A stretch of DNA of 25,326 nucleotides from Planctomycetota bacterium (lineage in GTDB: Bacteria; Planctomycetota; UBA1135; GCA-002686595), in NCBI GenBank assembly GCA_029212955.1, contig JARGOW010000001.1, forward strand, positions 1,119 to 26,444, written 5' to 3'. Shown here piece by piece: positions 10,773 through 25,210 of this stretch; positions within the stretch are counted from its first letter, which is position 1; the number at the start of each line of letters is the position of its first letter. The position numbers and the translations under genes are program-made. The notes under the pieces were generated by a model. It was not told where the DNA came from, did not search any database, and was given only the letters and a program-made list of their open reading frames with translations.

Positions 10773-11705
10773 CTAGACGGATGTCGCCCGTGGATGGGAC
10801 TTCTCATACACCTCGCGCAGTCGTTCGATGGACACGTGGGTGTAGATTTGAGTGGTGGTCAAATGGGCGTGACCCAGGAGCTCCTGGACCGCGCGCAGGT
10901 CGGCCCCGCCGTCGAGCAGGTGGGTTGCGAAACTATGTCGCAGGGTGTGGGGGGTGACCCTTCTTGGGATGTTGGCTGCCAGGGCGTGCTTGGCCACGAT
11001 GCGTTCCAAGGAGCGCGTGGTGAGGCGTGTTCCATTGCGACCTAGAAAAATCGCTTCGCAGGCGTTGAGCTTTGCCTGGGGACGTCGGGGGTCGCTCAAG
11101 TATTCATTGAGTGCTTCGACGGAAAATCGGCCCAGGGCTCCCAGGCGCTCCTTCTTTCCCTTTCCGAGGATCCGGACCAAGCCGCGTGCCAGGTCCAAAT
11201 GGGGGCGATCCAATGCGACGGTTTCCGCGGCTCGGGTGCCCGCGGAGTACATGACTTCGAACAGGGCCGCGTCGCGCAATCCGGGCAATGTGGTTCGGTC
11301 GGGAGCCGCCATCAAGGCCTCGGCCTCCTGCCTGGAGAGCACGCCCGGCAGGTAGCGGCCACTGCGCCGTTTGCGGAGCCCCACACTGGGATCGGACTCG
11401 ATGTGGCCTTCGGCTAGCAGGTCTTTGAAGAATGTGCGCATGCTCGAGAGCTTGCGCTGCATGCTAGATGAGGCCAATTGGCGCTCGTCCAATTCAGCCA
11501 GGTATTGACGTACATGGCGTGTGGTGATTTGCCCCGGATCTTGAACACCCCATTCCTCAAGGAACGAGGCGAGCTCGGAAAGGTCCTGGGCGTAGGCCTT
11601 GAGCGTATGTTCGCTCAAGGATCGGCCGTGGGCCAGGACGTGCAAAAAACGATCGACCCACGCGAATAGGTCAGCGTTCACCTCGGAGGGGCTTGGACTG
11701 GCCAT
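10773..11705 (-). CDS. xerC: Tyrosine recombinase XerC (310 aa; start MASPS at 11705)
   Basis: N-terminal SEHTLKAYAQDL. Catalytic R (GTRAAE), K (GKGKKER), HxxR (HTLRHSFATH), H (LLGH) and Y (TQIYTH) are intact. C-terminal LREVYEKSHPRA is XerC-like; XerD is not fully excluded. Confidence 0.88.
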   Translation of the reverse strand: MASPSPSEVNADLFAWVDRFLHVLAHGRSLSEHTLKAYAQDLSELASFLEEWGVQDPGQITTRHVRQYLAELDERQLASSSMQRKLSSMRTFFKDLLAEGHIESDPSVGLRKRRSGRYLPGVLSRQEAEALMAAPDRTTLPGLRDAALFEVMYSAGTRAAETVALDRPHLDLARGLVRILGKGKKERLGALGRFSVEALNEYLSDPRRPQAKLNACEAIFLGRNGTRLTTRSLERIVAKHALAANIPRRVTPHTLRHSFATHLLDGGADLRAVQELLGHAHLTTTQIYTHVSIERLREVYEKSHPRATSV

Positions 11706-11769
11706 GGTCGTGGGTCGTTGATTGGGCCCGAGTCCCAGTAGGGGAGGCCGAATGAAGAGGGGGCTTGGC

Positions 11770-12114
11770 TTAGCGGCGGGAGCGCTTCTTTCCTTTCTTG
11801 CCTTCTTCGGGTTTCTTGGCGGGGGAACCCAGGGCTTTGGCCTGGGCGCGCCATGCTCCGAGCAGGATCTCGCGGGACTTGGGGTTGATGCCCGCTGTGA
11901 AGCCGGCTTCTTCAGCAGCGTCCAGGGAGGTGAGTAGGGCGGCGGCGGCCTTTTGCTGGGCCTCCATGGAGCCGCGCATTTCCTGCACGTGGGCTTCCAG
12001 CACCTGAACCCGAAGGGCAAGGCCGGCATTGGCGTCGTCCTGGGGCATGGCGCTGAGGGTCAGGAAGCCAAGGGCGAGGATCGGAAGTACGGTGTCTCTG
12101 AATCGGATTTGCAT
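11770..12114 (-). CDS. Small hypothetical exported protein with coiled coil and basic tail
   Basis: Signal-like MQIRFRDTVLPILALGFLTLSA, heptad-like LALRVQVLEAHVQEMRGSM, C-terminal KKPEEGKKGKKRSRR. Sits between the MFS gene and xerC on the same strand. Confidence 0.7.
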   Translation of the reverse strand: MQIRFRDTVLPILALGFLTLSAMPQDDANAGLALRVQVLEAHVQEMRGSMEAQQKAAAALLTSLDAAEEAGFTAGINPKSREILLGAWRAQAKALGSPAKKPEEGKKGKKRSRR

Positions 12115-19287: not shown

Positions 19288-19356
19288 CGACGGGGTTTGA
19301 ATCCGTGACGGGTGCTCGCCGATTCCAAGGATGAGGGAATCCCATCACGCTGGACT

Positions 19357-19794
19357 CTATTCGGAGGTGCTTTCCTTGGCGCGGCGTGAGATCTCATCGG
19401 AGTCGACGGCTTCCTTCTTGTTGGCCAACCACCATTGGTTGCCGAAGGGGTCTTTCAAGCCGCATGTGCGGTGCCCGTAGAATTGATCTTCGGGGTCCTG
19501 GAGCGATTCCGCGCCAGCTTCCATCACATGGGCGAAAGCCAGGTCCACATCGGGCACATACATGTATTGCATGGACTTTGTGGATCCTGTGTCGTCGCCC
19601 GCTCCACCCAGCATCAGGCGCGAATCGCCGATTTGCACCTCCGCGTGCATGATTGTTCCGTCGTCGCGCTTGAAACACTCCAGGGTCTCCGCTTGGAAGG
19701 CGAGCTCGAGGAAGTGAATGTATTCCTGCACATTCTGAACCAGGTAGTAAGAGGTGAGGGTGCTGTAACCTTCGGGAATGTGGTCGTAACTCAT
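19357..19794 (-). CDS. VOC (glyoxalase/bleomycin-resistance, PhnB-like) family protein, 145 aa
   Basis: IPEGYSTLTSYY, IMHAEVQIGDSRLML, LYVPDVD-like YMYVPDVD, DQFYGHR and DPFGNQW. SD AAGGAG 8 nt before ATG 19794. Confidence 0.9.
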   Translation of the reverse strand: MSYDHIPEGYSTLTSYYLVQNVQEYIHFLELAFQAETLECFKRDDGTIMHAEVQIGDSRLMLGGAGDDTGSTKSMQYMYVPDVDLAFAHVMEAGAESLQDPEDQFYGHRTCGLKDPFGNQWWLANKKEAVDSDEISRRAKESTSE

Positions 19795-19912
19795 GGTGGG
19801 GACTCCTTGTTCCAACCCCATACCATCATGGCATTCCGCAGAACGCAAGCGGGTTGCCGCGCAGGGTACAAAACCCATGCGCGGCACCCCTTTGGTTGCG
19901 TCTGCTACGGGC

Positions 19913-20542
19913 TCAATCCAAGGGGCCGATGGCCTCGATGAGCCCGGTCATTTCGTCATCGGAAAGGCTCTTGGAGTTTTCCTTGAGCGCGGCGATGAGT
20001 TCGGAAGGGTGCATATCCTTTCCCGCAACGATTTCGGGGGTCATGAGGGCTGCGCCCACTTGACCAGGCAAAACAAGGAATGCGCTGATCCGGGTTTGGC
20101 CCCCGAACTCGACCTCCTGGCCCAGGGCAACCCGCAGGGCACCCTTAGGAATGACTTCGCCGGATTGCTTGCACTTGGCGCGGCCGGAGGGATCGTGTTC
20201 CGCGTAGGGGATGACCTTGCGTTCCTTTTTCTTGGTCTCGGCCTCCTCCTGGAGTTTGCGCAGATCCTCCAAGTCCGGAAGGTCCTCGGGGGTTTCCTTC
20301 GCGTGCTGCCAGGCTTCGGCTGTGTAGGCTTCTTCCACCTTAGCCCATTGGCGTTTGGCGGCGCAGGTCAGGTGGTGCCACATGTATCCCGTTCCGAAGG
20401 GGCCTTCAACAAGGATGCCCAGTCGCAGAACGTCCTTGAGGATCGGCTTGCGGCAGGACTTGCACTTGGAGCGGGAGGAGCGGGCGCCCTCGATCATGTA
20501 GTCGGGCTGGATTTCTTCGGGTTCGTTGGGTTCGTCGGGCAT
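19913..20542 (-). CDS. Stand-alone tandem PARP-type zinc-finger protein
   Basis: aa 15-61 give the complete C27-x2-C30...H57-x2-C60 finger (EGARSSRSKCKSCRKPILKDVLRLG...WHHLTC). aa 113-162 are a second, degenerate copy (AEHDPSGRAKCKQSGEVIPKGALR). Confidence 0.88.
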   Translation of the reverse strand: MPDEPNEPEEIQPDYMIEGARSSRSKCKSCRKPILKDVLRLGILVEGPFGTGYMWHHLTCAAKRQWAKVEEAYTAEAWQHAKETPEDLPDLEDLRKLQEEAETKKKERKVIPYAEHDPSGRAKCKQSGEVIPKGALRVALGQEVEFGGQTRISAFLVLPGQVGAALMTPEIVAGKDMHPSELIAALKENSKSLSDDEMTGLIEAIGPLD

Positions 20543-20605
20543 TGTGGGAGCCGTAAGTCTGGGGGTGGGAAGAGCGAGATGCGGGTCGCATCCCGTTGGG
20601 AGGGT

Positions 20606-21853
20606 TTAGGCGATACCGCCGGGGATGAGGTCCGGAGCGTTGCGATCGATACGCTCCTGTAAATTCTGGAAGAGGCGATCGCGCTGGTCATAGAGCCGAT
20701 AGCCCGTTTCTTCACGTAGGTAGCCACGGGCTTCCGGGTGGCGCTCGAGCAGGGTTTCCATACCCATTTCCTCCGCCAGGCGAAGCAGTCTTGCGCGCTT
20801 GTCCAGGAGTGCCTTGGTCAGTAGGGGCATGACCATGGAATAGTCCGCCTGCATGGATTCGGTGGTTCGCTGGAAGGCGTCCTTGTCGACCTTGCCCCAG
20901 GTCACGGCTTCTGCGGGCGGGCACGAGGAAAGGGACCCGTCGGTCACCGGGGCGCTCGTGATCTGAATGTCATACAGGAAGCCTGCAATCTCGTCAAAGC
21001 CCAGGATTTGGCTTAGGGCGGGTTCGGGTTGCAGATTGAAGTTCTTGGGCACGCCGCCTCCAAGCACGAGGGTCCCAAGGGAGCCCACGGGGTTTTCACT
21101 TTGGCCCCACAGGTGGTAGGCGCAGGATTCCAGGACCTCGTGGTGGAGGTCTAACTCGAATCGGTAATCCAGGTGTTGTCCCCGGGCCAAGGCCCAAAGC
21201 TTGACCGAATTGAGGAACACGGATCCATCGGCGGGAGCGCCGACAAACACGGGGATCGCCTTGCGGTGGCAGAGTGCCATGAGTCCTTCGGGCACCTGAT
21301 TCTTGTGTTCCTGTGCCGCGTAGCATGCACCCAGCAGGTAGCGCATCTCGGGGCCCGCCATGCGCTTTTGGAATTCGGGCCGCAACAGGCAGCGGGTCAG
21401 GAATTCGTCCTGATCCAACAACACGTCCTCGTCGAATCCAATGTCGGTGCGGATGGTGCGGTCGTCGCGCAGGGCCCCGTCGTCGCCAAATATCGGGACC
21501 TCGTGGAAGGGGTGTTGGTCCGCGTTGTCCAGGGATCGGTGCCCATCGTGGTAGCAGACCGCGTCGGTGGTGGAAACCAGGCAGAACCAGCCCGTGTCGA
21601 GCAAGGGATTCAACCAGGCAAGGTGTTGGCCCGAAGCGGTCACAGGACCCGCCACGGCCAGGGTCATGGGGACGCTTCGACCGATCGCCTCATCCAGGAG
21701 CTTCCAAATGCGGCGTAGATAGGCACCGCCGAAGCTGGGAAAGCACGATTCCAAGAGGTGATCCAGGTGACGGACCTGATCCACGGGTTTGTGCTCGAGT
21801 GGGGAGGAAGTGGCCGGACAGGCCGCCCGCTGATCTTTGCGCGTGGGGGGCAT
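20606..21853 (-). CDS. Deoxyhypusine-synthase-family NAD-dependent aminobutyltransferase (homospermidine-synthase-like)
   Basis: CYHD, PADGS, LGGGVPKNF, QIT...DGSLSS.PP.EAVTWGK (catalytic Lys codon 20891-20893) and ADYS motifs. Confidence 0.9.
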   Translation of the reverse strand: MPPTRKDQRAACPATSSPLEHKPVDQVRHLDHLLESCFPSFGGAYLRRIWKLLDEAIGRSVPMTLAVAGPVTASGQHLAWLNPLLDTGWFCLVSTTDAVCYHDGHRSLDNADQHPFHEVPIFGDDGALRDDRTIRTDIGFDEDVLLDQDEFLTRCLLRPEFQKRMAGPEMRYLLGACYAAQEHKNQVPEGLMALCHRKAIPVFVGAPADGSVFLNSVKLWALARGQHLDYRFELDLHHEVLESCAYHLWGQSENPVGSLGTLVLGGGVPKNFNLQPEPALSQILGFDEIAGFLYDIQITSAPVTDGSLSSCPPAEAVTWGKVDKDAFQRTTESMQADYSMVMPLLTKALLDKRARLLRLAEEMGMETLLERHPEARGYLREETGYRLYDQRDRLFQNLQERIDRNAPDLIPGGIA

Positions 21854-22657
21854 GGGGGGAGTGTAGCGAGCCCATGGGGCAGATTCGGTACAAAATCGGG
21901 TCCTGGAGGACTCCAGGCGCTGAATTCGGGCCGTTTTCCGGGTGTGAGATGGATCCTAGGTGGCCCGGGGACGGGTGGGCGGCATGGGGCAAAACCCTTG
22001 GCCTGGCGCGGTTCGGGGGACGGGGGAGGCGACTGCGGGCCGACAATGGGCTGGATCGGGCATTCCCGGCTCCGATTGCACTTTCGGTGCCCTGGGCAGA
22101 ATGCGAGAAAGCGCCCCGGTAGAGAGCTCGGTCCCTTCGGATTGAGCATGGGTAGAGCGGGTGGGCTCTCGCTCCATCCACGGAAGGACAGGCTTTGGGC
22201 TTTTGATGGATGCCGTCATTTCATTAACAAGCATTTACGTGCTGAGCTTTGGAAGTTGCATTGTCGATCACCAGGGGCTTCTACATGGACCTTTTTGGGC
22301 CCACTGTTCGAAATCCTGGTTGACCTTTCAATTTGTTCAGAATAGCTGCGGGTCGATGGGCGGCATTTACGCTTCTTGGTTTGGAAGGCAATCGTTAGGA
22401 GTGTCCTGCGTGCAAGGTGCGCAGGTCCACCATCTTCGGGTGGGCACTCTGGGCTATTCGCCGCAAGTGAATCCAGCCAGCCGCCCTTTGCGAGCTCCAC
22501 CGGAGCCTGCTGGGAGGGCCCGTCGCCAACAGCTGGGTCCCAGTGACAAGAGATCCTTGGGTTTCTCGTTCTCGGACCGAGCCACCCGTTTCGGGTTTGG
22601 TCACGGGATGGATTCATGGCGCTGCCTCCTCCTCCTGCCAGTCCCAACAAAACTCCA

Positions 22658-25210
22658 ATGAATACACCCAATCTTCAAAGTATCTCCACCCTCGGGCTGC
22701 TTTGCGCTGCCACATTGATTGTGGCCCCAGTCCAAGCGCAGGAAGCCCACGTCGAAGCCCCCGTGAAAGCGACTTCGAGTCCTGTGGTTTCTCCCGCCCA
22801 AGTCCCTGACCGCCCCGTGGTCCTGGACTTCAAAGGCGGCGCCGTTGACGGGGCTTTGGCCCCCAAAATCGGTCCCCGCACCCCCGTGGTGCACACCCCG
22901 CTGGATACGGCACCGACGGACGGTCAGGGTGGCGAGCCCAGCATCCAGCGTGCCGACTTCCAACAACTCCTGCGTGAGCGCATGCACTACGACATGCAAA
23001 ATGGACAGGTGTGGGCCATGGGCGGCGATTACAAAGCCAGTGCAGGTCCGGAAGGATTCTCCTTCATGCCTTTCCTGGGCAGCGATGCACCCAAGACCTT
23101 CGAGCACAAGATGCGTTTGAGCTCCGCCACCCTCGGCGGTGAGCCGATCGTTTTGGACGGGACCGCCAAGGTGAAGCGCGCCGGAGACCGCGTCATTCTG
23201 GACCGTGGTCCGGTCGACGTGTTCTACGACATGTCCACCGAGTCCGTCGAGCAAAGCTTCGAGCTTGAAGTGGCCGGGATCGATGCCGAACTTGTTATCG
23301 ACATCGAAGTCGACTCCGATGGTGAGATGGAAATCCGGGGAGACGCCATTTACTACGTGAATGACCGTGGTGGCATTTCCTATAGCCACGCGATTGTGAT
23401 CGACGGCGCCGGCAAGCGTTTGGAGCTGCCGATCGTCGCCACCAAGGGCAATGTGCGCCTGACCGTGCCCGCCAGCTTCATGGCCCAATCGGTGGCTCCC
23501 GTGCTTGTCGACCCGGTGATCAATTCCTACCAGGTGCATGCTGGCTACGCCTACAACCTAACGTCGCCTGACGTGGCGTTCGATTCGACGACGAACACGT
23601 TCGCATACGTGCATCAAAGCCAGTGGTCTACCACCGACTATGACGTCTGGATGGAAACCTACGGGGGCAACTCTGGCGCCCTTGTGGACCTGCAGAGTAT
23701 CGATTTCTCCACGGGAAATGTTCAGACTCCCAATGTGGCGAACGATGCAGGTTCCGACCAGTTCCTCGTGGCGAGTCGCCGTTTGGAAGCCAATGGCCGT
23801 TGGGAAGTCATCGGTCGTATGGCGGATGCCACCGACATCTCCCAGCGCAGCCCCGTATTTGTGATCGGCGACATCAGTGGTGCGACCGGCGATCCCTCCG
23901 GTTGGGACAACCTTCGCCTCGATGTTGGCGGTAAGTCCCAGGGAACCTCCCTCTTCAAAGTGATTTGGGATCGCGAGTTCTTCACGGCCACGGGTTCCTA
24001 TGTGAACCTTAGAACCACCACGGTGACCCCTGTGGTCCCGTTCAGTACTGTGACGCCGCCGTCCACCAGCGGACTTTCCGCAGTGACGGTGGATGTGGGG
24101 GTCCGGGATACCATGGCCAAGATTTCGGAGTCTTCTGGAATGGCAACCGTCGCCGAGTGGCGCAGTGCCTGGATTCGTACGGATATCGCAACGGGAGCCC
24201 AGTCGGCTTACACCATGCTGACCGCGGATGACAACACCCAGAACCTAGCCCCGACGCTCCTGTTCAGTTTGAGCTCCTCTTTTGCATTCAGGGATCTGGA
24301 TGTGACCGAAGGATTGACCACCATGGATGGGCCGCTTTCGGCGAGCCCGGTTTCGCTGGTCGCGTGCCACTTCGATGGCCCGAACTCCGCCGATGTCTGG
24401 TTGTACGGTGTCCAAGATGCTGGGTTCTTTGAGGAAATGCACCTCACCGCCAGGGAGCACCAGGATCTGGGACAACGTCCCCGATTCCCCGCCGTGGCTG
24501 CCCTCGCGTCCCGTTTCGTGATTGCCTACAAGGAATTCAACATCAACACGGGCCAGTATACGTGCTACTCCAGTTCGGTCGACTTGAACAACCAGAACGA
24601 ATTTGCCGTTGCTGAGCGTCGTGAAGTTGTGGCGGAATTGGGTATCAACTACTCAGCAGATCGCCCCGCAGCGGCCTCCCGTTACTCGGGTGGTCTCTAC
24701 TCGTCCCGTTACGTGGGAACCGCGGTCTCCTTCTTTGATGGCACTTTTTGGACACAGGAAGCCGCCGTCATGTTCCCGAGCCAATCCTTCTCACCCGCAC
24801 ACCAGTACTGCGCGGGCAGCCCGAACACCACGGGCGATTATGGCTTCATCAGTATGGGTGGAACCTCGGCGACAACCGGCGGCAAGACCCTGTATGCCAG
24901 TTCGATGCCCCTAAACCAGTTCGGCTACTTCGTGGTCGGTCATGGTGGCTTTGGCACCCTCGTTCCTCCGGGAAGCGCTGGTACCCTCTGCCTGATCGGC
25001 GGCATCGTCGGTCGCTACAACCAGGGCATTGAAATCCAGTTCACTGGAACCACGGGTTCGTTTGCCTTGAGCATCAACCCGGCAGCCATCCGATCCAACT
25101 TCGGAGATGTGGTTGGCACTTCGGGCCAAACCTACAACTTCCAGGGATGGCACCGCGAAAACGGTGGTAGCAGTAACTTCACCAACGCGGTGACCCTGCG
25201 GTTCGATTGA
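22658..25210 (+). CDS. Large secreted multidomain protein (~850 aa): N-domain, probable beta-propeller, Cys-containing C-terminal domain
   Basis: Signal MNTPNLQSISTLGLLCAATLIVAPVQA-QEA. APVLVDP domain boundary, ~7 P-x-V-A-type repeats, terminal domain starting YC. Followed by a terminator. Confidence 0.85.
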   Translation: MNTPNLQSISTLGLLCAATLIVAPVQAQEAHVEAPVKATSSPVVSPAQVPDRPVVLDFKGGAVDGALAPKIGPRTPVVHTPLDTAPTDGQGGEPSIQRADFQQLLRERMHYDMQNGQVWAMGGDYKASAGPEGFSFMPFLGSDAPKTFEHKMRLSSATLGGEPIVLDGTAKVKRAGDRVILDRGPVDVFYDMSTESVEQSFELEVAGIDAELVIDIEVDSDGEMEIRGDAIYYVNDRGGISYSHAIVIDGAGKRLELPIVATKGNVRLTVPASFMAQSVAPVLVDPVINSYQVHAGYAYNLTSPDVAFDSTTNTFAYVHQSQWSTTDYDVWMETYGGNSGALVDLQSIDFSTGNVQTPNVANDAGSDQFLVASRRLEANGRWEVIGRMADATDISQRSPVFVIGDISGATGDPSGWDNLRLDVGGKSQGTSLFKVIWDREFFTATGSYVNLRTTTVTPVVPFSTVTPPSTSGLSAVTVDVGVRDTMAKISESSGMATVAEWRSAWIRTDIATGAQSAYTMLTADDNTQNLAPTLLFSLSSSFAFRDLDVTEGLTTMDGPLSASPVSLVACHFDGPNSADVWLYGVQDAGFFEEMHLTAREHQDLGQRPRFPAVAALASRFVIAYKEFNINTGQYTCYSSSVDLNNQNEFAVAERREVVAELGINYSADRPAAASRYSGGLYSSRYVGTAVSFFDGTFWTQEAAVMFPSQSFSPAHQYCAGSPNTTGDYGFISMGGTSATTGGKTLYASSMPLNQFGYFVVGHGGFGTLVPPGSAGTLCLIGGIVGRYNQGIEIQFTGTTGSFALSINPAAIRSNFGDVVGTSGQTYNFQGWHRENGGSSNFTNAVTLRFD

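Follow-up and report, generated by a model that had tools for sequence, protein, structure and literature searches.

A stand-alone tandem of PARP-type finger domains in a Planctomycetota genome, with a zinc-less second finger

The window analyzed here is a stretch of 25,326 nucleotides from a Planctomycetota bacterium (assembly GCA_029212955.1, contig JARGOW010000001.1, positions 1,119 to 26,444 of the forward strand), whose source is a 4.0-Mb metagenome-assembled genome (MAG) that is 76.5% complete. It carries a gene coding for a protein of 209 residues, which lies between two co-directional genes coding for a deoxyhypusine-synthase-like (DHS-like) enzyme and a glyoxalase/VOC-family protein (Table 1). 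Pfam recognizes the zf-PARP domain (PF00645) in two stretches of the protein, with 71.5 bits against a gathering cut-off of 39.3 (E 9.9e-20); no other Pfam family passes and no NCBIfam model matches. The protein consists of two complete zf-PARP domains and nothing else. A preliminary description of this DNA, made from its letters alone, had recognized PARP-type fingers in tandem in a bacterial protein free of any PARP catalytic, WGR, BRCT or ligase domain, and the profile search that it proposed as a check bears this out. The second half of the protein is an internal repeat of the first. Its best sequence matches among solved structures, as detected with phmmer, are fingers F1 and F2 of human PARP1 (2n8a, E 2e-11) and the finger of DNA ligase III (1uw0, E 1e-5). 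A scan for promoters and terminators returned nothing informative on the strand of the finger gene, and the gene has no obvious Shine-Dalgarno sequence.

Table 1. Coordinates of the finger gene, its two domains and the adjacent co-directional genes in the window
Feature	Coordinates	Strand	Basis
Stand-alone tandem PARP-type zinc-finger gene	19913..20542 (end coordinate including stop codon)	-	209 aa; open reading frame list and Pfam zf-PARP
Finger domain 1, residues 14-105	20228..20503	-	Aligned to PARP1 residues 8-59; helices 58-107 follow
Finger domain 2, zinc-less, residues 109-209	19916..20218	-	Finger-2-only match to PARP1 fingers; superposition on Zn2
DHS-like gene, upstream, co-directional	20606..21853	-	Pfam DS 100 bits; context
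Glyoxalase/VOC-family gene, downstream, co-directional	19357..19794	-	Pfam Glyoxalase 34.7 bits; context

A word-indexed search retrieved 321 homologues of about 200-230 residues, all unnamed or labeled "hypothetical", many of which are more than 50% identical across phyla. Conservation counts and the phylogenetic tree are based on the best 120 of these 321 proteins, hereafter the 120 relatives. Finger 1 carries the complete CX2C...HX2C zinc site of the family: HMMER aligned C27, C30, H57 and C60 to PARP1 C21, C24, H53 and C56, and this CCHC set is invariant in 120/120 relatives. R24 aligned to the PARP1 phosphate-grip arginine R18 and R40 to R34, such that the four ligands and the grip arginine were all correctly picked out in the preliminary description. 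The same description had matched a phenylalanine of finger 1 to the base-stacking loop of PARP1. This residue, F49, is indeed present, but in a loop shorter by two residues that places it opposite PARP1 M43, next to F44; the exact counterpart of F44 is F146 in finger 2. What had been described as a helical and basic linker between the fingers is largely the helical C-terminal half of finger domain 1, but it is not basic, with a net charge of -2.

Finger 2 has retained a single cysteine, C124, with S127, L158 and Q161 standing in place of the other three ligands, as had been noted from the sequence. The CX2C...HX2C signature is consequently absent, and finger 2 is a zf-PARP domain by descent and fold, not a zinc finger in the chemical sense. 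Its descent is nonetheless readily recognizable. Finger 2 alone matches the PARP1 fingers at E 3e-4, with R121, R137 and F146 aligned to R18, R34 and F44; it also keeps Q149 and R151, as well as the two motifs noted earlier, SGRA and IPKG-x-LR, the latter as IPKGALR. Its C-terminal helices terminate in the family motif IGxL (IGPLD in the window protein); [IV]GxL ends nearly all members of the family. The two fingers together thus display the phosphate-grip and second arginines (R24, R40, R121 and R137) and the hydrophobic loop residues (F146, and F49 in its shorter loop) that characterize zf-PARP domains. These positions, together with Q149 and R151, make up eight candidate DNA-contact positions (R24, R40, F/Y49, R121, R137, F146, Q149 and R151) that are kept in 118/120 relatives. 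Conservation of the PARP1 DNA-grip residues in both fingers therefore holds well beyond this one protein.

Structure prediction, also proposed as a check, led to the same fold. The AlphaFold model, built from an alignment of 26 relatives, reached a mean predicted local distance difference test (pLDDT) score of 92.2 and a predicted template modeling (pTM) score of 0.70, with pLDDT values of 93-97 in finger 1. The top Foldseek matches of this model were the PARP1 N-terminal domains on nicked DNA (9mi8, E 1e-9) and PARP1 F1F2 on a single-strand break (2n8a, E 7e-9), and all 28 matches up to E 2e-3 were PARP1 or ligase III fingers. In VIA comparisons, finger 1 (residues 6-106) superposed on PARP1 Zn1 (1v9x) with Z 8.4 and a root-mean-square deviation of 3.4 A over 95 residues, and finger 2 (residues 110-209) on PARP1 Zn2 (3odc) with Z 9.5-9.6 and 3.1 A over 89 residues; PARP and ligase III entries scored Z 6.7-9.6 and unrelated entries at most 4.8. 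The predicted fold is hence that of the family, in which a helical C-terminal part comes after a beta-sheet with zinc knuckle. Residues 109-209, with what appeared to be a C-terminal tail included, superpose on a whole PARP1 finger domain; since residues 110-209 superpose on Zn2, this apparent separate tail is the helical part of finger domain 2. A control model from an alignment restricted to 17 zinc-less relatives gave a pLDDT of 88.4 overall and 85-94 in finger 2, unchanged secondary structure and the same match to 3odc (Z 9.6). In this control the pTM dropped to 0.54 and the linker pLDDT to about 71, for which reason the two fingers are probably flexibly linked.

The zinc site of finger 2 is intact (CCHC) in 99/120 relatives and degenerate in 21/120, where it reads CSLH, CSLQ, CSLM, CCLH or other combinations. 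In a maximum-likelihood tree, a single branch separates all degenerate forms from the rest, which amounts to one change, with moderate support (81/37). The zinc-less finger 2 is therefore the derived state of one planctomycetal clade and not a trait of the family. Because the basal members of this clade read CCLH, the sequences suggest a stepwise loss in which the histidine went first and the second cysteine later.

Loss of three of four zinc ligands, and the absence of the gene from many relatives, could be taken as signs that the gene was acquired from a eukaryote and is now decaying, with its second finger on the way out. This explanation is barely credible in view of the constraint on the domain. 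The ratio of nonsynonymous to synonymous substitution rates (dN/dS), computed between the window and five relatives, is 0.02-0.10 for the finger 2 core (residues 112-166), as low as that of the finger 1 core (0.03-0.16), and 0.07-0.27 for the whole gene, all of these being rough values as dS is about 0.5-2.4 and near saturation. Identity over the finger 2 core is 0.68 within the zinc-less clade and 0.70 among intact members. Moreover, the zinc-less state persists throughout a clade in which identity falls to about 56%, none of the contact residues varies, and all 80 of the 80 loci described below gave an open reading frame (ORF) in the finger-gene cluster, i.e., intact reading frames. Finger 2 is under purifying selection in the zinc-less clade and shows no decay. 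It presumably folds metal-free, and one zinc per protein is expected.

The family has a patchy distribution. The family profile matched 18/401 genomes sampled from the phylum (9/243 high-quality genomes), of which 10 hold close members (E <1e-60), and 11/21 genomes sampled from the window's own family hold the finger gene. A pattern scan of one genome per species over 185,579 species confirmed 119 loci, 80 of which were kept for analysis. These 80 loci belong to Planctomycetota, Acidobacteriota (Vicinamibacteria, Marinacidobacterales and Polarisedimenticolia), Myxococcota and one Eiseniibacteriota. They include one cultured holder, Engelhardtia mirabilis Pla133 (L062), which is of the zinc-less type (CSLH). 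Overall, the gene is rare and accessory, yet strongly conserved in the genomes that have it. The window stretch itself occurs in marine metagenome runs, the best of which (DNA runs) may include the source sample; no RNA run was found among the listed sequencing runs that hold it.

The C-termini of the family differ between clades. In 35/120 relatives, all from one strongly supported acidobacterial clade, the protein has an acidic C-terminal extension ending in (A/P)PF (e.g., ...EEEAPPF); in the sister clade of the window's clade the ending is ...GSL[YF], and the acidic (A/P)PF tail is absent from the window protein. We take this tail to resemble the C-terminal tip of the bacterial single-stranded DNA-binding protein, a tip that recruits repair and replication proteins. 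By analogy, the acidobacterial tail would suit recruitment. Proteins with this ending were seen among P0016-P0109 (e.g., P0024, P0048, P0049 and P0055) and at loci L021, L025, L026, L031-L035, L047, L050, L053 and L094.

An exhaustive profile search extended the family to 1361 proteins at E <=0.001, including eukaryotic PARP1s, plant ZDP-like finger-phosphatases and two types of bacterial fusions. Fusions of the first type (P0178, P0274, P0201, P0206, P0210, P0232 and P0250; 865-1052 residues) start with the F1-F2 tandem and continue for 700-850 residues without a Pfam match, a region for which only weak structure-atlas leads were obtained (HEAT-like, TM 0.34-0.44; a DUF1963/YwqG-like end, 0.77). 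Their first finger scores best on the bacterial finger 1 profile (33-55 bits) and their second on the finger 2 profile (39-48 bits), with cross-matches of 7-27 bits. Fusions of the second type are about 550 residues long and show a faint LRR signal (P0156, P0170, P0172, P0175 and P0200, as well as L008 7001-8662). Two distant relatives of 180 residues with tandem zf-PARP domains, P0275 and P0276, are named "exonuclease VII small subunit" in JGI records. The name looks like a misannotation, as zf-PARP and a weak zf-BED hit are all that Pfam detects in them.

Genuine eukaryotic PARP1s (P0247, P0262 and P0265) behave differently from the fusions: with either of their fingers, the bacterial finger 1 profile (28-40 bits) outscores the finger 2 profile (12-24 bits). 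Because both PARP1 fingers prefer the finger 1 profile, bacterial finger 2 is by these scores a subtype of its own, even though the tandem architecture is PARP1-like. Sequence searches with single fingers gave scores too close to discriminate (16.4 vs 15.1 bits), and it is the profile scores which suggest that bacterial finger 2 is not orthologous to PARP1 F2. The bacterial tandem may thus stem from a duplication separate from that of PARP1, or its second finger may have strongly diverged. The comparison with PARP1 ZnF1-ZnF2 drawn in the preliminary description is accordingly apt for finger 1, which resembles the PARP1 fingers well, and less so for finger 2.

The finger protein is encoded 63 bp from the DHS-like gene and about 118 bp from the VOC gene. 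The DHS-like protein is divergent (179 bits with the NCBIfam homospermidine-biosynthesis model, whose cut-off is 450) and has a C-terminal extension of about 60 residues past its Pfam DS match. The VOC ORF was listed from a GTG at 19887; because an ATG at 19794 is preceded by AAGGAG and the homologue at L002 has 124 residues, the shorter form is favored and this ATG is likely the true start. To characterize the neighborhood, all ORFs within 5 kb of the finger gene were clustered in the 80 loci. The DHS-like gene was found directly upstream of the finger gene in 21/80 loci, all from planctomycetal or unclassified MAGs, with both states of finger 2 and down to about 45% identity, and the two genes are adjacent in 9 genomes of the family in which one contig carries both. 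Such recurrence and the co-directional arrangement would be expected if the finger protein acted with the DHS-like enzyme, as its partner or substrate, and perhaps with the VOC protein, in one stress operon. We find this distinctly improbable. The adjacency is limited to Planctomycetota, was never seen in Acidobacteriota or Myxococcota, and sits inside a larger syntenic block (NadA, DHS-like, GT2 and XseA). The DHS-like gene occurs in 17/21 genomes of the family, whether or not the finger gene is there (61-82% identity), as against 11/21 for the finger gene; the corresponding slot is filled by unrelated ORFs in at least three relatives, and in E. mirabilis no DHS-like ORF was found within 5 kb upstream of the finger gene. 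A complex prediction for the two proteins gave no answer (score 0.00, run without controls) and counts neither way. In our reading, the adjacency reflects inherited position, and the two genes do not form a functional unit.

The slot between the GT2 and DHS-like genes (19290-20600 in the window) is variable in content and holds the VOC and zf-PARP genes in the window. In relatives devoid of the finger gene, it is occupied by unrelated ORFs at L011 1780-3020, L012 1790-3030 and L014 1350-2940, the last of which includes an ORF of 504 residues (1371-2885, - strand). Another lineage-specific arrangement is found in eight acidobacterial loci (L026, L032-L035, L037, L053 and L094), where a gene for a CehA/McbA-type PHP metallohydrolase of 414 residues lies about 65 bp upstream on the same strand (e.g., L033 3645-4889, + strand; sub-threshold, 60 vs 80 bits with NCBIfam). 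The pairing, limited to that one lineage, would recall plant ZDP in setting a phosphoesterase next to a nick sensor. Elsewhere in the window, ORFs of 864 residues (22616-25210, + strand) and 312 residues (22601-23539, - strand) overlap on opposite strands, and neither matches Pfam or PADLOC. At 10773-12029 (- strand), next to methyltransferase and MFS transporter genes, lies a tyrosine recombinase gene; besides Phage_integrase and SAM-like N-terminal domains, its product has about 120 additional residues at the N-terminus.

Neither position nor co-occurrence ties the finger gene to the enzymes with which PARP-type fingers are associated elsewhere. Searches of the 76.5%-complete source genome turned up no PARP catalytic (PF00644), WGR (PF05406), ATP-dependent ligase (PF01068) or Ku domain; in three genomes of the same family that hold the finger gene, the searches for PARP, ATP-dependent ligase and Ku were likewise negative, as was that for Ku in four genomes of this family. 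Of the 10 sampled genomes with a close member, 0 encode a PARP domain and 3 an ATP-dependent ligase (111/401 overall), which was never on the same contig as the finger gene. Ku is present in 18/31 holder genomes, mostly of Acidobacteriota and Myxococcota, and in these 31 genomes was never near the finger gene, the closest being about 50 kb away and the others at least 170 kb away or on other contigs. Hence genome co-occurrence and position show no dependence of the finger gene on PARP, ATP-dependent ligase or Ku. The survey of neighborhoods and of PARP and ligase co-occurrence outlined in the preliminary description thus yielded no PARP in close-member genomes and, within 5 kb in the 80 loci, no neighbor common to different phyla. 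The adaptor recruiting an effector in trans that it had envisaged finds no support in these analyses.

The same description had considered an undescribed DNA-damage or defense pathway. A DNA-damage sensor of an anti-phage or other conflict system would account for the patchy, accessory distribution of the gene, and a distant fused relative, P0175, adjoins reverse-transcriptase, ivWA, HEAT and LRR genes, a setting that resembles a conflict-system neighborhood. The long fusions moreover end in the DUF1963/YwqG-like region, which is a lead only. Yet neither the finger protein nor five neighboring ORFs nor two fused relatives matched PADLOC-DB 2.0 at E 0.01 or better; the window locus belongs to an ordinary block of the chromosome; among the neighbors in the 80 loci, no nuclease, toxin or NTPase recurred; and cross-phylum identities above 50% are unusual for fast-evolving defense genes. 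A role in conflict is very improbable on this evidence, and the only recurrent neighbor, the DHS-like gene, being confined to Planctomycetota, does not outline a pathway of another kind.

Taken together, the domain content and the conserved residues lead us to favor, with moderate confidence, a non-enzymatic, structure-specific binder of DNA nicks, gaps or ends. In PARP1, R18 and R122 grip the phosphate backbone while F44 or L161/I164 stack on an exposed base pair; the binding does not depend on sequence, and D45 is required for enzyme activation alone (PMC8150716). By homology, in each finger of the window protein the grip arginine (R24 or R121), the second arginine (R40 or R137) and a hydrophobic residue of the loop (F49 or F146) would together clamp the backbone and stack on the base pair exposed at a discontinuity, and the two fingers would bracket the break as PARP1 F1 and F2 do. 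Finger 1 would be held together by zinc, and finger 2 of the marine planctomycetal clade would be folded without metal. Once bound, the protein might cap or protect the break, or use its conserved acidic C-terminus to mark the break for general repair factors. Its output cannot be ADP-ribosylation because it has no catalytic domain and no PARP was found in the genome. The position of D45 is occupied by G147 in finger 2 and, by alignment, T51 in finger 1; the lack of an aspartate there fits a binder with nothing to activate.

Several observations weigh against this interpretation. The eukaryotic homologues on which break specificity is modeled are only about 20-30% identical to the window protein. 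The whole protein is acidic (pI 5.3), as are its N-terminal leader and last helices; the sheet parts of the fingers, in favor of the interpretation, are basic (pI 9.3 for finger 1 and 8.6 for finger 2). No DNA-repair gene is consistently linked to the finger gene across phyla in the 80 loci, and the nearby exonuclease VII large-subunit gene (XseA) lies on the opposite strand and reflects lineage synteny only. The gene has no counterpart in 10/21 genomes of the window's family and, being missing from these close relatives, must be dispensable in function. AlphaFold models cannot decide whether a finger minus three zinc ligands folds. A literature search found no publication on this bacterial zf-PARP family. 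Finally, the function is wholly inferred and the neighborhoods supply no pathway context: we infer break binding by homology, and likewise the zinc-free folding and any downstream role.

Some of these points would equally suit a nucleic-acid binder that is not break-specific, such as a nucleoid-associated or regulatory protein, or a binder of RNA or of DNA structures (hairpins, junctions or undamaged DNA) that uses a PARP-type fold. PARP1 itself is reported to bind undamaged DNA as well (PMC6135609). The distinct subtype of bacterial finger 2, unlike either PARP1 finger, the lack of linkage to repair genes, and the fusion of the tandem to HEAT-like or LRR-like scaffolds instead of repair enzymes all point in this direction. 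We nevertheless consider it rather unlikely, as the residues under the strictest conservation coincide exactly with the grip and stacking loop of PARP1, and a patchy, single-copy distribution is a poor fit to a general nucleoid protein.

A broader proposal, which we put forward only tentatively, builds upon the break-binding interpretation. The family could represent an ancient bacterial nick or break sensor that operates without PARP, i.e., a free-standing form of the module found in PARP1 and ligase III, whose second finger was re-engineered to be zinc-free in a marine lineage. Such a sensor might cap breaks, or recruit general replication and repair factors via its conserved C-terminal end, such as the acidic ...PPF tail of the acidobacterial clade.

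The presence of a PARP-type domain in such proteins is not in itself new, since automatic annotation already labels them "PARP-type domain-containing". What is new is that the zinc-less finger 2 is clade-specific, was reached stepwise and is yet selectively maintained, that no reliance of the gene on PARP, ATP-dependent ligase or Ku is apparent from co-occurrence and position, and that bacterial finger 2 is a subtype apart. PARP-type fingers are the textbook strand-break sensors of eukaryotes, where they are fused to enzymes in PARP1 and ligase III; here the sensor stands alone, in bacterial hosts without PARP. If the protein does bind breaks, it would constitute a bacterial break-recognition factor outside the standard repair scheme, and both the origin of the damage-sensing head of PARP1 and the direction of inter-domain transfer would become testable. 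The strongly constrained, zinc-less finger 2 also provides a natural experiment on the metal requirement of the PARP-type fold. Should it fold as presumed, finger 2 of the window's lineage would be the first metal-free PARP-type finger, a case comparable to the zinc-free paralogues of zinc-ribbon ribosomal proteins. Experiments are possible since E. mirabilis Pla133, of the zinc-less type, is cultured; the Saltatorellota preprint on this organism makes no mention of PARP or zinc fingers.

Among the closest known systems is human PARP1, whose F1 and F2 (2n8a, 4av1, 3od8, 3odc and 9mi8) belong to the same PF00645 family and share with the window protein the tandem arrangement, a similar spacing and the same predicted fold (Z 8.8-9.6). 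The likeness extends to the grip arginine, second arginine and hydrophobic stacking residue of both fingers and to the CX2C...HX2C site of finger 1. PARP1 differs in having all of its zinc ligands, three of which are missing from finger 2 of the window protein, and in carrying Zn3/PADR1, BRCT, WGR and catalytic domains. The window protein has none of these; the WGR, regulatory and catalytic (H-Y-E) domains of a PARP1-type polymerase are all absent from it, and no PARP was found in the source genome. The N-terminal finger of DNA ligase III alpha (1uw0) is of the same domain family and fold (VIA Z 6.7-6.8), but is a single finger fused to a ligase, whereas the window protein has two fingers and no ligase domain. 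Plant ZDP-type DNA 3'-phosphatases (P0159 and P0176) likewise contain several zf-PARP fingers without a PARP domain, and differ in their fused PNK3P phosphatase, an effector for which the window protein has no equivalent. The bacterial fusions P0178, P0210 and P0175 possess the same F1-F2 tandem in addition to HEAT-like, DUF1963-like or faint LRR regions that the window protein lacks. The only characterized stand-alone PARP-type finger protein that we found is Hpz1 of fission yeast, a small protein with no PARP activity whose loss is reported to sensitize cells to UV in G1 and to hydroxyurea (PMC3435320). Hpz1 is eukaryotic and nuclear, with ties to Rad3/ATR and to S-phase entry, and many fungi have it as a fusion with Rad3, while the bacterial protein is a two-finger form found in organisms without those partners. 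Within bacteria, the nearest fold cluster in the AlphaFold database is A0A2V7X9H4, a "PARP-type domain-containing" group (E 1.3e-18, 35% identity) whose members are shorter (about 180 residues) and form a more distant subfamily, yet are built on the same F1-F2 tandem.

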